The notes under the pieces were generated by a model. That model had not been told where the DNA came from and ran no database searches. It worked only from the letters and a program-made list of their open reading frames with translations. This document shows, piece after piece, positions 22,037 through 27,611 of a stretch of 64,000 nt of DNA. The stretch lies in the NCBI RefSeq assembly GCF_045037415.1, contig NZ_CP173438.1; one strand, given 5' to 3'. Origin of the DNA: Escherichia coli. GTDB taxonomy: Bacteria > Pseudomonadota > Gammaproteobacteria > Enterobacterales > Enterobacteriaceae. The translations under genes were made by a program, and so were the position numbers. Positions within the stretch are counted from its first letter, which is position 1; each line of letters begins with the position of its first letter.

Positions 22037-23203
22037 TCAAACTGATGGACGTAAACGAACGCGTAACCAGCTATATCCAATTACCGCCGAAGAAATTGAA
22101 CCGACAAGGATACCTAATTTTGCCCAGTTAATCAGTTCTGGATCTACGCTACCAAATGCCAGGCTGGCAATAAAGATAGACATAGTAAAACCGATACCGC
22201 ACAGGATACCAACCGCCATAATTTGCTGGTAAGTCGTTCCCTCTGGCAGATGTGCCAGTTTCAAACGCAGCGCCAACCAGCAGAACAGACTAATACCCAG
22301 TGGCTTGCCAATCAGCAAACCAGCGATGATCCCTAATGGCAGAATGGAGGTCAAACCTTCCAGCGTGACACCTTGCAGTGAAACGCCAGCATTAGCAAAT
22401 GCAAACAGCGGCAAAATCAGATACGCCACCCATGGATGCAAAACATGCTCCAGACGTTTAGCCGGAGAGCGCCCATGCTTCTCTTTTAACGGAATAAAGA
22501 AGCCGACAATGACGCCAGCCAGCGTTGCATGGACACCTGATTTCAACACCGCTGTCCACAGCACCACGCCAACCAGAATATAAACGCCCGTGCGGCGTAC
22601 ACCACACAGATTCAATACCGCGAGTACCGCAATTGCTACAGCCGCGACGCCAAGAGAGGCCATCGATAAGTCATTAGTGTAGAACAATGCGATGATAATG
22701 ATGGCCCCAAGATCGTCGATAATAGCCAGAGCCATCAAAAAGATCTTCAGCGCTAACGGAACACGACTTCCCAACAGCGCCAACACACCAAGTGCAAAGG
22801 CAATGTCAGTCGCCGCCGGGATTGCCCAGCCTTCGCGAGTGATAGGATCGGCATAGTTAAAAGCCAGATAGAGCAATGCCGGGACAATCATCCCGCCGAT
22901 TGCGGCAATAACAGGAAATGCCGCCTGGCGCAGACTGGCCAGCGAACCTTGCATCAGCTCGCGTTTAACTTCCAGACCAACCAACAGGAAAAATACCGCC
23001 ATCAGAGCGTCATTGATCCATAGCAGCATGTTCTTGTTGATCTCAAGTGTCCCAACCCGGAGCTGAACCGGCGTCTCAAGAAAGTCGTGATACCATCCAC
23101 TGGTTGCACCGCTGTTGGCCATAATCATCGCTAATACAGCGGCAATAATGAGAATAATGCCTCCCGAGGCATCACTGCTAAAGAATCGATGCAGATGTTT
23201 CAC
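22037..23203 (-). CDS. nhaA: Na+/H+ antiporter NhaA, 388 aa
   Basis: [42 protein letters not shown]... full length. Confidence 0.96.
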
Positions 23204-23437
23204 TTTTTATTTCTCTTCAGGTGAATAGATCGTTTTCACGATTTTACCCCGCACGAATCATCGTTAAAATCAGATTATAGTGTAGGAATAGCTCGCTTTT
23301 TACGATCTATTAAAAGAATTGCGCCATCAGCGAGAGATGAGTTTTTGATGCCCGAAAGCGGCGGCTGATGACCTTAAACCCCATTAATCATAGTCTAATG
23401 TCAAGATTTCTGAAGAAATTATTCGGAAAAGTAATAA

Positions 23438-24697
23438 TTAAATTGTTCCATGCTCTAGTTTTTTATTCCACAGATGTTTGAGGATATCTAATGTAGAAAC
23501 GACATTCGCAGGAGACATTCGGTTCAATGATATAAGGAAAGGATGGTTCTCCACAAAGTGGATAAAACGCGTCGCACTGTTCAATGTTGCATGCCGCATC
23601 TCGCGGACTTTCTTACTGCCAGTGAGATTGCATACAGCCATTGAATAATTGCGGTTAGAAAATGCACGCCAGACATTATTTCGTACCCCACCACTAAGGA
23701 ATAATCGCGGCGGAAAATCAATGGTGGCGGGTGCCACACCGCGCTCTTTGACAAAGGAAATATGGCAGCGACCTTGATGAATATGCTGCAAATTAGCCAT
23801 CAGGCAGCCGCCCAATATAAAGCATTCGTGATCAAGGTAATGCTGAACGTTGTTGGAATGCTCATCGGTCAGTATTCTGACCAGTTCAAAATGACGATAT
23901 GCCGGAAGAACCGGTTTTACCAACATTCCCGGATCGTTTTGATGTAAAACTGCCGGGCCGTAATCAATATCAAACAAGGTATCCCGCCGCATAGTAAGTA
24001 ACTCTTTGCGCTGGACATGATGTGCCAGCGTCCCTGGAGACATACGCTCTTCATAGTTCGATGTGTATTGATAATGTTGCTCTACGGCAGATGGGGAGTA
24101 ATTGGTTGAGATGGCAACCACCCTGCCGCTTTGTTCTTCTGCGGTAACAAGAGCATAAAGAGAGTTATTGCTACCATTATACTTGACGCGAAAAGCGCGG
24201 GTACTCAGGGTAATATCAGAAGCTGGGAAACACTGTCGACTTTCTTTATAGTTTGCTTCACGCGCTAATTTTAACAGTTCACGGCTAAGTCCAGTGCTGT
24301 TAAGAAGTAATGACTTTCTGATATCCGCAAGTGCCTCCCCTTGCTCAATCATCAATGCTAACTGGGCTCCTCGTGGTGTGGTAATTACATGTTCCAGAGT
24401 GATAAATGTTTTCTCACAATGATGGCAATACATTCTTCTCTGGCCTTGTGCAGAATATCCATATTTTTTGAGGGACGTGCCTCCGCAAGTTGAACATTGG
24501 CAAATCAAACCTCTCCAGGAGTGATTCACAATATTACGATAAATATTAAGCGACTGTTCAGATATCACTGGAAACAAGTAACCACATTCACGGCATAAAA
24601 TATTTTTACCCTGTGCGACATAATCCTGGCTATTCAGCAACCCCAGGTTTTTACATCCTGGTGTTTTGCAACAATCAACATTTACGTTGGTAAACAT
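23438..24697 (-). CDS. Cysteine-rich hypothetical protein (tandem CxxC zinc-ribbon-like N-terminus, then a helix-turn-helix-like segment and a ~300 aa domain of unknown function)
   Basis: Cys pairs at C12/C17, C37/C40, C68-C70-C73, C93/C96; likely start is the ATG at 24697 with an agggag SD (the ORF track uses the GTG at 24703); no radical-SAM CX3CX2C motif; AT-rich gene. Confidence 0.6.
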   Translation of the reverse strand: MFTNVNVDCCKTPGCKNLGLLNSQDYVAQGKNILCRECGYLFPVISEQSLNIYRNIVNHSWRGLICQCSTCGGTSLKKYGYSAQGQRRMYCHHCEKTFITLEHVITTPRGAQLALMIEQGEALADIRKSLLLNSTGLSRELLKLAREANYKESRQCFPASDITLSTRAFRVKYNGSNNSLYALVTAEEQSGRVVAISTNYSPSAVEQHYQYTSNYEERMSPGTLAHHVQRKELLTMRRDTLFDIDYGPAVLHQNDPGMLVKPVLPAYRHFELVRILTDEHSNNVQHYLDHECFILGGCLMANLQHIHQGRCHISFVKERGVAPATIDFPPRLFLSGGVRNNVWRAFSNRNYSMAVCNLTGSKKVREMRHATLNSATRFIHFVENHPFLISLNRMSPANVVSTLDILKHLWNKKLEHGTI

Positions 24698-24825
24698 ATC
24701 CACTCCCTGCGAATAGCCGTATCTTGATATTGTTCAACGCGAAAAGAACCTGATTCAATGCGTAGCACTGAATCAGGCGGGCATAGCCCTAAATGGCATA
24801 CATTACATTTATTATGATTATCAGG

Positions 24826-26319
24826 TTAGCCCCAGGTCACCGCTTCTGGTTTATCACCTCTGGCTTTCATTAGAGAATCATTATCAATATCAGTTTTATA
24901 TTTTAAAAACTTACCATACATCTGTTTTTCAATATCTGGTTTTTTACCGATCAGATTAAGTGTTTCATAACGATCAGATTTCAGATTGTAGAGATATTTC
25001 GGTTTATTATTGCGATCGATAATCATCTTCCAGTCACCATCACGGATCGCCCATTCATCGGTTGGATCATCCTGGAATGGCATATCAATCCCGAAAATTA
25101 ATGGCTTTTCGCGTTTCAATGCTTTTTGCTCAAGAACAGGAACCAGCGATTCACCATCGAAAGTACGGTCTGTAGGTAATTTGAAGTTCATCATTTTCGC
25201 TAAAGTAGGCATCCAGTCCAGACCATAAACGGGTGTATCTGAAACCATTCCCTGTGGTAGATGTTTACCATATTTAATAATGGCTGGAACACGAATTCCG
25301 CCTTCCCAAAGGTTATCCTTGCGACCGCGTAATCCATCCGTTTCCCCTGCCAAATTCAGCTCATACACTTTGCGCGCTTCACGCGTTACCGGACCGTTAT
25401 CACTGGTAAAAATAACGATTGTGTTATCTTCTTCACCCACAGCTTTGATTTTATCCAGCACTTTTCCAACCTGTGCATCCAGATAGCTGATATTGGCATA
25501 ATATTCCCCCACACCACGCCAGGGTTTGTCTGCCCAGTCGCCATAAAATAAATCAGGATGCTGCTTCTGATACGCGCTCATATATTGTGAGTACATATCG
25601 AGGTATTTTTTGGGCGAAGCCAGGGGGCTATGCACTTCGGTAAAAGCAACATAGAGGAAGAAAGGCTTGCTGTCCTTTTTGTTATCCAGCCAGTTGACGA
25701 CTTCCGAACTGACATACTCACCGCTCATTTTATCGGCTCGTGGAGTGGGTTGCCCGTTACGTAGCCAGCCTGTCGGGTAAACCATGCCATAACGCGGGCG
25801 TTCTTTAGCGTTATCCAGCGTGGCGTCGGTAACAAAGCCCGCCGTATTAACCAGTGAGTAATCAAAGCCCATATCTTGTGCTTGTGGCTGATCGGTGCGA
25901 TCGCTGCCTGCATTCAGATGCAGCTTACCCATCATTGCCGTGTCGTACCCTTGCGCTTTGAGTAGATTAGCAATCGTGAGTTCGTTACGCCCTAAGGCAA
26001 CATCTTTGCCTGAAGGAATCCATGAGCGAATTCCAGTACGAAATGGCATCCGGCCGGTTAATAGCCCTGCGCGTGAAGGTGAACTTAAAGGAGCGGGGGC
26101 ATAGTAGTCAGTAAATTTGACCCCTTCCTGGGCAAGCCTGTCGATATTAGGTGTTTTAACGATCTGATGACCATATGTTGCTAAATCGCCATAACCTAAA
26201 TCATCCGCCATAATAATGACTAAATTAGGTTGTTTAGCCTCTGCGGCTAAGGCAGGACTAAAAGCATTCCCTGTGCAAACTGCAAGGCCGATCAAACTGG
26301 CCATTAACGTTTTCTGCAT
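24826..26319 (-). CDS. Periplasmic Ser-type sulfatase (arylsulfatase family), 497 aa
   Basis: Signal peptide MQKTLMASLIGLAVCTGNAFSPALAAEA; sulfatase signature S79-S-P-S-R-AGLL-TGR where the formylglycine position is Ser (codon AGT on the minus strand, plus-strand 26083..26085); metal-binding DD at IIMADDLGYGD. Confidence 0.85.
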   Translation of the reverse strand: MQKTLMASLIGLAVCTGNAFSPALAAEAKQPNLVIIMADDLGYGDLATYGHQIVKTPNIDRLAQEGVKFTDYYAPAPLSSPSRAGLLTGRMPFRTGIRSWIPSGKDVALGRNELTIANLLKAQGYDTAMMGKLHLNAGSDRTDQPQAQDMGFDYSLVNTAGFVTDATLDNAKERPRYGMVYPTGWLRNGQPTPRADKMSGEYVSSEVVNWLDNKKDSKPFFLYVAFTEVHSPLASPKKYLDMYSQYMSAYQKQHPDLFYGDWADKPWRGVGEYYANISYLDAQVGKVLDKIKAVGEEDNTIVIFTSDNGPVTREARKVYELNLAGETDGLRGRKDNLWEGGIRVPAIIKYGKHLPQGMVSDTPVYGLDWMPTLAKMMNFKLPTDRTFDGESLVPVLEQKALKREKPLIFGIDMPFQDDPTDEWAIRDGDWKMIIDRNNKPKYLYNLKSDRYETLNLIGKKPDIEKQMYGKFLKYKTDIDNDSLMKARGDKPEAVTWG

Positions 26320-26339
26320 AATTATTCCCTGATAAAAAA

Positions 26340-27101
26340 TTAGAAATCATAACCAAGCATATAAATCATTTGATCGCCAAAGCCATCGTAGCCCAGCTTA
26401 TTATCGAAATAACGCCACGTCACACTGGCTTTCCAGCGAGGATAGAACTTCCAGGCAATAGTTAAACCGCCATTTAACCCGTTCCGGCCAAATTGCTGCT
26501 CCGTGTAAGCATCGTTCCTGTCCAGTTCTATTTCATTCCAGTTAGATAAAACAAATTTTTCGTCAAATAACGTAAATGGTAATACTGCTGTCCAGCCAAC
26601 AACATAACCATTCCAACCATTCGTTTGACCATATTTAGCTGATACGTAGTCACCAGATTGATTATGTAATCCAATATACGGTTTAAAAAAGCCCCACTCG
26701 CCGTTCCAGCCGAGGTAACCGAATCCATAAAACATGTCCAGATCGTCACCCCATGAGTTATCCCATTGGCCATAAATTTTGCCAAAGAATGTCATATCAG
26801 AGTCAAAGAGTCTGACATGCGTCATTACTGAAACCGTATGATTTCGCCCTGCTACAGCATGATTGAGTACATTACTTTCATAAAATGAGTAAAATTCTGC
26901 TTCTTTAAAATTTACCCCAAAATCCGCAGTCACTTTCCATACTTCACCACGGTGAGTGTTTACAAATCCACTATTCCAGTCTGCATAACCCGCATTTATT
27001 GAACCAAAGGTTCCTTTATATTCTAATGAAGAATATGCAGGAAAATGATAGATAGCTGTTATCAGGGTACACGCAATAAGAAGTCGTCTTTTGGCAGACA
27101 T
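26340..27101 (-). CDS. Outer-membrane beta-barrel channel, Tsx/OmpK-like, 253 aa
   Basis: Signal peptide; aromatic-rich alternating pattern; C-terminal ...MLGYDF ending in Phe; general resemblance to the Tsx nucleoside channel family (from memory, not a computed alignment). Confidence 0.6.
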   Translation of the reverse strand: MSAKRRLLIACTLITAIYHFPAYSSLEYKGTFGSINAGYADWNSGFVNTHRGEVWKVTADFGVNFKEAEFYSFYESNVLNHAVAGRNHTVSVMTHVRLFDSDMTFFGKIYGQWDNSWGDDLDMFYGFGYLGWNGEWGFFKPYIGLHNQSGDYVSAKYGQTNGWNGYVVGWTAVLPFTLFDEKFVLSNWNEIELDRNDAYTEQQFGRNGLNGGLTIAWKFYPRWKASVTWRYFDNKLGYDGFGDQMIYMLGYDF

Positions 27102-27611
27102 ATAATATGTTCTCCATTCATTGTTTTTATGATTCCATAGGAATTAATACACCAGACAATTCATTTTTATTAAGAATGACCAGGCCAGTATATTTAAAGA
27201 TGACTATCGAAGCGTGATGAAGATCGCAGATTACTTTTGCGAACGGGCGGAGGGATATCGTGTTTCAGAAAATGTGTCTGTTTTAAATATCACCCTTTGA
27301 TTTATAGGCATTTTTCATGATGAACTTAGCATTGGCTGCTGAACGTATTTCTTTGTCTCTCTATAGTATTACACTAACCTTTAATAATTAATTTCCTTTA
27401 GCCATTCACTTTTGATAGAGGAAAACACCTTTTTTGTGAATCCCTGGATATATTTAAGTTAAATAAATTGATGTATTGAAATATTATTCCGCAAAAATGC
27501 GAGGCGTCTTCAGAAAAAGAATTGATAAAACAGAAGTGAATTAAAAGCGCAGTATAATAGCGGCGGGTGCTTGAGGCTGTCTGTCTCAGGCATTGGCTGA
27601 ACGGCAGATAG

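Follow-up and report, generated by a model that had tools for sequence, protein, structure and literature searches.

The window analysed here is a stretch of 64,000 nucleotides of an Escherichia coli genome (contig NZ_CP173438.1). This work deals with a gene on its minus strand, at positions 23438..24697, which codes for a protein of 419 amino acids followed by a stop codon and has identical coordinates in the list of open reading frames (ORFs) and in the RefSeq annotation. RefSeq labels the product 'hypothetical protein' (WP_000494928.1). The gene belongs to a three-gene island (23448..27446) that was delimited by blastn against the K-12 locus, from which it is missing: homology to K-12 ends at 23447 and starts again at 27447. 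The island lies between nhaA and mokC/hokC, in the order dnaK-dnaJ-mokC/hokC, three-gene insert, nhaA-nhaR, and its three genes, coding for a channel, a sulfatase and the protein under study, are all on the minus strand. Among 5426 complete E. coli genomes, 1269, or about a quarter, carried the island in colinear form, mainly with at least 99% identity to the window, and the segment around the gene is 100% identical to many genomes of extraintestinal pathogenic E. coli (ExPEC), while K-12 and O157:H7 lack the whole island. The synonymous divergence (dS) between the two E. coli alleles of the island (window 22037-27101 versus locus L002) was 0.53-0.90, and in the flanking core gene nhaA it was still 0.35. 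As read from the sequences, these high values point to an old linked polymorphism or to one allele having been imported from a different Escherichia lineage. The locus of strain UTI89 looks mosaic, with 95.5% identity in two pieces.

The ATG at 24697 is preceded at 7 nt by the Shine-Dalgarno sequence GGGAG, and MF are the first residues in all orthologues; therefore, this ATG was taken as the true start. The orthologues are full-length, share 36-85% identity and all consist of one unbroken ORF, in which the programmed -1 frameshift of classical IS1 was not seen. The two main E. coli alleles are approximately 81% identical over the gene, and their comparison gave a ratio of nonsynonymous to synonymous divergence (dN/dS) of 0.10 at a dS of 0.90. 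The second allele (L002) has been named in RefSeq after NF050000, the IS1/IS1595 N-terminal zinc-binding domain. About 1270 complete E. coli genomes carry the gene in intact form. It had a median of one copy per genome among 1275 E. coli genomes, always on the chromosome and at the same locus and never on plasmids, and no paralogue was found within the window. A signal peptide was not found in the protein; its partner enzymes are periplasmic and carry N-terminal signal sequences. In the AFDB50 listing, orthologues of host-restricted Salmonella serovars were shortened to 327 (Typhi), 247 (Paratyphi C) and 375 (Dublin) amino acids in comparison with about 418, which fits the pseudogenisation typical of those serovars. 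In the collection of papers searched, nothing on the protein family was found. Databases name its members 'cytoplasmic protein', 'IS1 family transposase' or 'lactate dehydrogenase', the last of these being attached to Photobacterium and Vibrio members in several databases and supported by no domain search. The family analysis presented here corrects such misleading names.

All conservation counts are based on a family alignment of 52 members sharing 17-85% identity. In the N-terminal part, a first zinc ribbon was delimited at residues 10-38 (24584..24670, minus strand), with the ligands C10, C15, C35 and C38, from conserved Cys columns (46-47 covering sequences) and from the beta-hairpins of the AlphaFold model, whose strands lie at 26-29, 32-35 and 41-43. 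A second ribbon, of the InsA/IS1 type according to NF050000, hhalign and PF03811, spans residues 68-94 (24416..24496, minus strand), with the ligands C68, C71, C91 and C94. Each of the eight ligands was found in 42-50 of the 46-50 covering sequences, unlike C9 and C66, which vary across the family, and the AlphaFold model has one three-stranded ribbon at residues 26-43 and another at 76-99. A three-helix helix-turn-helix (HTH) of the InsA type follows at residues 108-153 (24239..24376, minus strand). A preliminary description of this DNA had read four Cys clusters as two Cys4 ribbons followed by an HTH-like stretch; the conserved ligands and the modelled ribbons bear out the former, and the latter falls within the modelled HTH. 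These two Cys4 sets are the only Cys motifs of the protein, and no redox or cofactor motif was present.

The origin of this module could be traced by profile comparison. NF050000 matched residues 70-101 with 28.1 bits, just at its cutoff of 28. When the family profile was aligned by hhalign to InsA of IS1 (the K-12 IS1A copy), the probability was 96.8% (E-value 2.6e-10) with the deep alignment and 93% with a shallow one, and residues 64-141, comprising ribbon 2 and the HTH, paired with InsA 4-84. PF03811, the InsA ribbon, matched 7 of the 52 members at an E-value of 1e-3 or lower, whereas PF12760, the IS1595 ribbon, matched none at that threshold (1.6 on the query) and no IS1595 DDE (Asp-Asp-Glu) transposase model was matched either. 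Therefore, the affinity of the N-terminal module is with IS1/InsA and not with IS1595/ISXO2. The additional ribbon 1 is peculiar to the family. The query protein alone gave nothing significant in a Pfam search and only a chance match (E-value 0.39) in a PDB sequence search. A PDB profile search suggested kinship with C2H2 poly-zinc-finger proteins (E-value 4e-12), which was rejected as an artefact of the Cys/His periodicity of the two ribbons. These C2H2 matches, to designed as well as natural proteins, are a trap for automated annotation and are uninformative on the C-terminal domain. Only a weak match to the ribbon was obtained in PHROGs and none in PADLOC, so that no link to defence systems emerged.

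The C-terminal domain, residues 158-419 (23441..24226, minus strand), has an RNase-H-like fold, as found in DDE transposases, with a beta-rich insertion at 331-357. An AlphaFold prediction with 23 close homologues was too poor for residues 208-370; after distant relatives had been added, the model reached a predicted local distance difference test (pLDDT) score of 94.2 and a predicted template modelling (pTM) score of 0.93. It contains the core succession beta1-2-3, alpha, beta4, alpha, beta5, alpha, with beta1 at 161-172, beta2 at 179-187, beta3 at 193-198, helices at 224-237 and 263-280, beta4 at 283-288, a helix at 292-307, beta5 at 311-320, the insertion, and helices at 373-384 and 396-415. 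The fold comparison gave figures of 10.7 for ISCth4 (IS256/Mutator), 9.8 for Tn5, 8.5 for Hermes and piggyBac, about 8 for Argonaute PIWI domains and about 7.5 for retroviral integrases. The DDE/RNase-H-like fold for which the preliminary description had proposed a test was thus found in the model. A Foldseek search against AFDB50 returned family members only, from Enterobacteriaceae, Vibrionaceae, Serratia and Proteus. None of the 52 members matched any Pfam or NCBIfam model in this domain, so that the earlier verdict of no assignable family holds for the C-terminal part, but not for the N-terminus with its NF050000 match. A relationship to InsB was not detected by hhalign (0.2% probability), no DDE model of Pfam matched any of the 52 members, and NF033558 (IS1) scored 20.4 bits, compared with an equivalog cutoff of 100 bits, over its profile positions 1-76 only.

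The catalytic residues expected of such a fold are largely missing. Column 291 is the sole column of the alignment that is always acidic (E in 47 and D in 5 of 52 members), and it is located directly after beta4, the canonical site of the second catalytic Asp. In beta1 (158-174) no position was acidic in more than 31% of the members, and T/S166 is conserved instead (49/52); in the helices after beta5 no position exceeded 44%, and N411 is conserved instead (49/52). Since neither beta1 nor these helices hold a conserved acid, the DDE triad is not conserved, and, with only position 291 remaining acidic, the protein is very unlikely to perform canonical two-metal DDE chemistry. Two residues, R238 and H269, do not vary across the family, and H290, W343, Y211, Y246, N199 and P262 are nearly invariant. 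In the model, a conserved polar cluster thus appears to survive around the former active site.

Signs of mobility were not found. Inverted repeats around the gene or its module remained at chance level in E. coli, Klebsiella, Scandinavium, the enterobacterium of locus L010 and Vibrio aquaticus. A 14-nt pair at 23422-23435 and 27230-27243 was considered as terminal inverted repeats (TIRs) and rejected, since about two such pairs are expected by chance according to our estimate; one of its arms falls in DNA common to island-less K-12. Single-copy syntenic orthologues, purifying selection and the absence of element ends together indicate a domesticated IS1-like transposase. We conclude that the protein very probably derives from an IS1-related transposase, has been domesticated, is no longer mobile and has a degenerate catalytic site. 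The preliminary description had listed a domesticated zinc-ribbon transposase among its options, and this part stands on InsA homology, the DDE fold, single-copy synteny and selection, while its assignment to an IS1595/ISXO2-like architecture has to be replaced by IS1/InsA. Of what it had regarded as contrary evidence, neither a confident full-length match to a transposase family nor flanking TIRs were observed, nor a pseudogene state in the complete E. coli genomes that carry the gene.

The conserved cluster could also be viewed as a sign that an enzyme survives, in which E291, H290, H269 and R238 would form a non-canonical site that cuts or rearranges nucleic acid, as in a site-specific nuclease or recombinase active at the locus itself, or in an RNA-processing enzyme. 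We consider this rather unlikely, since beta1 lacks the conserved acid that is indispensable to active RNase-H-fold nucleases, neither inverted repeats nor invertible segments were present around the promoter, and the colinear island showed no sign of rearrangement in the 1269 genomes that carry it.

The island genes upstream code for a Tsx/OmpK-like outer-membrane channel (26340..27101, minus strand; ORF and annotation, with PF03502 matching the orthologues), which is the first gene of the module, and for a periplasmic sulfatase (24826..26319, minus strand). As had been noticed before, this sulfatase is of the Ser type, with the motif SSPSR at residue 79. In four other enterobacterial loci, those of Salmonella, Klebsiella, Scandinavium and the L010 enterobacterium (whose orthologue is 36% identical), the module consists of the Tsx-like channel, the sulfatase, a radical S-adenosylmethionine (SAM)/SPASM enzyme and, as the fourth gene, the orthologue of the gene studied here, which starts 8-27 bp past the radical-SAM gene. 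The module occupies three different chromosomal sites among the genera. The radical-SAM enzyme is a true anaerobic sulfatase maturase (anSME), as it scored 534 bits with TIGR03942 (cutoff 349). Neither of the two E. coli alleles nor the E. albertii-type locus (L034) has the anSME gene, and the comparison of these sequences indicates that Escherichia lost it. In its place, between the sulfatase gene and the gene studied here, Escherichia has a spacer of 128-153 bp (128 bp in the window), and tblastn detected no anSME remnant in the spacer or elsewhere in the window. The spacer contains a terminator-like hairpin with a 14-pair stem and a T-run (TCTTTT) at 24748..24778 (minus strand), which is kept in the E. 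albertii-type locus with a changed loop.

The sulfatases themselves follow an unexpected distribution. Those of Escherichia (both E. coli alleles and the E. albertii type) have SSPSR and no maturase gene, while those of Salmonella, Klebsiella, Scandinavium and L010 have CSPSR together with a true anSME. According to the textbook rule, it is Ser-type sulfatases that strictly need an AtsB-type maturase, and the Escherichia pattern is the reverse of it. The E. coli Ser-type sulfatase is under strong purifying selection (dN/dS 0.033). In the larger Salmonella locus (L004:2404-13091), the core is surrounded by two genes for arylsulfate-sulfotransferase-like proteins and one for a 5'-nucleotidase-like protein, and the Tsx-like gene is divergent from the sulfatase gene. 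The 5'-nucleotidase-like gene lies beside the Tsx-like gene and is 48% identical to its counterpart in V. taketomensis.

More distant relatives (loci L017-L033) were recovered from reference genomes by a profile search with a six-sequence sub-alignment, and they have other neighbours. In Vibrio, Photobacterium, Enterovibrio, Thaumasiovibrio and Psychromonas, the family member was located downstream of a 5'-nucleotidase-like gene and on the same strand in all 17 loci. The gap was 27-165 bp in 16 of them, and L020 showed a partial match only, 771 bp upstream. The neighbour has 520 amino acids and the domains Metallophos and 5_nucleotid_C, and it scored below every NCBIfam equivalog cutoff. In Agarivorans the family gene is divergent from nupC-deoCABD, in another genome from nupC and a nucleoside phosphorylase (PNP) gene, and in V. 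taketomensis from a 5'-nucleotidase-like gene; in Photobacterium it was also found downstream of a nucleoside phosphorylase gene. One Raoultella relative has neither 5'-nucleotidase nor nucleoside genes beside it. The common theme is not sulfatases as such, but operons for periplasmic ester hydrolases and for channels or transporters of their products.

These neighbourhoods bear on the possibility that the protein is an accessory factor for an exported hydrolase, sulfatase or 5'-nucleotidase, whether as a chaperone in the cytoplasm, together with the maturase or by a maturase-independent activation of the Ser-type sulfatase. Its tight operon linkage to sulfatase and anSME in the four other enterobacterial loci would agree with such a role, as would the fact that Escherichia keeps the gene after the loss of the anSME, alongside the Cys-to-Ser change of the sulfatase. 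However, the wider family is paired with 5'-nucleotidase and nucleoside genes where neither sulfatase nor maturase is present, and an InsA-type ribbon, an HTH and a transposase fold make up a nucleic-acid-binding content in which no redox or cofactor motif occurs. An accessory factor is thus quite unlikely. The new accessory or maturation factor that the preliminary description had kept among its options is disfavoured for the same reasons and by the true anSME of the other genera, while its statement that the protein is not a sulfatase maturase itself is confirmed: the sequence lacks the motif CX3CX2C and gave no radical-SAM or SPASM match with NCBIfam or Pfam, and the other genera have the maturase as a separate gene.

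The protein might also be a transposase that is still active, belonging to an insertion sequence of the IS1/IS1595 type or to a transposon with the sulfatase genes as cargo, which would account for the InsA-like N-terminus, the transposase fold, the three chromosomal sites of the four-gene module in different genera and the name 'IS1 family transposase' given to relatives in some databases. This is extremely improbable in view of a single copy at one locus in 1275 E. coli genomes with none on plasmids, the lack of TIRs around gene or module in four species, the unconserved DDE triad, a score of 20 bits against the 100-bit IS1 cutoff with no match to InsB, and orthologues that have diverged in place to a dS of about 0.9. 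A decaying, functionless relic, which would suit the shortened Salmonella forms and the strains K-12 and O157:H7 that manage without the island, is just as improbable, being contradicted by the dN/dS of 0.10, by intact full-length orthologues across the Enterobacteriaceae with relatives across the Vibrionaceae, and by the conservation of all eight zinc ligands.

If the protein is a domesticated transposase derivative, its function should be sought in the operons that it accompanies, and we looked at their promoters. A CRP-like site, TGCGATCTTCATCACG, is present in the module promoter at 27213..27228 (minus strand), where it was recognised by its resemblance to the consensus only. Sites of this type (TGNGA-N6-TCAC) occurred in all the orthologous tsx-like promoters read (L002, L034, L004, L006, L008 and L010), that of Scandinavium being perfect (TGTGA-N6-TCACA), and this conservation of sequence suggests catabolite control of the module. 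Further upstream, at 27290..27303 (minus strand), the first conserved block in the Escherichia promoters, AAATCAAAGGGTGA, is a candidate operator. The three Escherichia alleles cannot be aligned beyond it; conservation starts abruptly at CTATAAATCAAAGGGTGAT and runs to the start codon. A degenerate pattern of the block was found once each, and always in the tsx-like promoter, in the window, L002, L034, L004 and L010, compared with 0.04-0.14 matches expected by chance in all the sequence searched for this pattern, which was defined post hoc.

In Vibrionaceae and Psychromonas, a different 20-nt element, CCAAC(T/A)CA(A/T)..GGTAAC (CCAACTCAAAnGGTAAC), precedes a CRP-like site and lies 130-150 bp ahead of the 5'-nucleotidase-like gene. 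The element scored 18-27 bits in 13 promoters; in L026 and L028 (Enterovibrio and V. mytili), which had been held out and whose 5'-nucleotidase genes are down to 33% identical, it scored 22-24 bits, while the chance rate was 0.38 matches of at least 13 bits per 17 kb. The element was also the top match of the Agarivorans locus, in the intergenic region between nupC and the family gene, and was present at L012:7595-7614. As judged from its sequence and position, it may be an operator of the family protein. An identity of this element with the candidate operator AAATCAAAGGGTGA was rejected, since position weight matrix (PWM) scans of loci and promoters gave p values of 0.04-0.89 and inconsistent positions. 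A likeness to the IS1 inverted repeat was rejected as well: CCAACT is common to both, but the best gapless PWM score of 6.4 bits was not significant.

Taken together, the domain content, a cytoplasmic location as opposed to that of the periplasmic partners, the terminal or divergent operon position, which is typical of local regulators, and the conserved promoter elements led us to infer a regulatory role for the domesticated transposase derivative. IS1 InsA itself is a repressor that binds the IS1 ends. The ribbons and the HTH, formerly the module by which the transposase bound its ends, would bind a specific site in the CRP-type promoter of the operon, and the promoter-bound protein would regulate its own operon locally. 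The dead catalytic domain would have been repurposed for oligomerisation or ligand sensing, with a pocket formed by the invariant R238 and H269 and the near-invariant H290, E291, W343 and N411. The complete statement, in which the domesticated derivative is also a local, sequence-specific DNA-binding regulator by means of its retained InsA-type module, is in our judgement probable on balance. Among the functions considered by the preliminary description, that of a DNA-binding regulator of the sulfatase module is the best supported, by domain content and conserved operon position.

Several observations weigh against this interpretation. The positions of the D/D/E residues were assigned by the secondary-structure topology of the AlphaFold model and not by superposition of coordinates, and an active site of a non-canonical kind that has survived would explain the invariant His/Glu/Arg cluster equally well. 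With regard to DNA binding, the enterobacterial upstream block is absent in Klebsiella and Scandinavium, the 20-nt element of the vibrios was not detectable in enterobacterial promoters by PWM scans, and another factor, for instance CytR, could be the one that recognises this element. Finally, the strong hairpin that separates the gene from the sulfatase gene may, to judge from its sequence, uncouple their transcription in E. coli, where no convincing promoter of its own was found for the gene.

Beyond the single locus, we tentatively propose, as a possibility to be taken seriously, that the protein is the first member of a gammaproteobacterial family of transcription factors which has not been described before, derives from DDE transposases and controls operons of periplasmic scavenging hydrolases. 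If this is true, the operons concerned would be those of the sulfatase in enterics; in vibrios they would be those of 5'-nucleotidase and of nucleoside uptake. In eukaryotes, there are well-documented cases of DDE transposases that were domesticated into host regulators. Such domestication is almost undocumented in bacteria, where transposase-like genes are routinely annotated and dismissed as insertion sequences, and, to our knowledge, the present case would be the first in bacteria of a DDE transposase exapted for dedicated regulation. The family is directly testable, since it is single-copy in Enterobacteriaceae and Vibrionaceae, has a confident model and a fixed place in its operons, and occurs in E. 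coli, Salmonella, Klebsiella and Vibrio. In addition, the gene marks a poorly understood module of Tsx-like channel, sulfatase and maturase, whose Escherichia version holds an unexplained Ser-type sulfatase without maturase.

Among known systems, IS1 is the closest in domain content. Ribbon 2 and the HTH are homologous to InsA, and the order of a DNA-binding module and then an RNase-H-fold domain is that of InsAB'. However, InsAB' has 232 amino acids, in comparison with the 419 of the protein studied here, which has an extra N-terminal ribbon; its C-terminal domain has no detectable sequence similarity to InsB, is about 100 amino acids larger and contains the beta-rich insertion. The programmed frameshift, the inverted repeats and the conserved DDE triad of IS1 are lacking, and the gene is single-copy. 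Since it differs from IS1 in InsB sequence, DDE triad, TIRs and mobility, and frameshift, databases should not list it under IS1 (or IS1595) transposases. The catalytic domains of ISCth4 (6xg8; IS256/Mutator) and Tn5 (1mm8; IS4) share 9-10% identity with the protein, which indicates resemblance at the level of fold only; they keep D, D and E, whereas the family keeps only the middle acidic position. The anSMEs (AtsB/AslB/ChuR) are likewise Cys-rich and encoded adjacent to sulfatases, but the protein lacks their CX3CX2C motif, radical-SAM and SPASM domains, and in other genera a separate true anSME lies between the sulfatase and its orthologue.

Exapted transposases that act as transcription factors include FHY3/FAR1, CENP-B and ZBED in eukaryotes and the TnpB-derived TldR repressors in bacteria. 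TldR derives from an RNA-guided TnpB nuclease and not from a DDE transposase, and the DDE-derived examples are eukaryotic. By analogy, these factors would be the closest functional counterparts of the E. coli protein, since they follow the same logic: the end-binding module is kept and catalysis is lost, and the gene is single-copy, syntenic and under selection.

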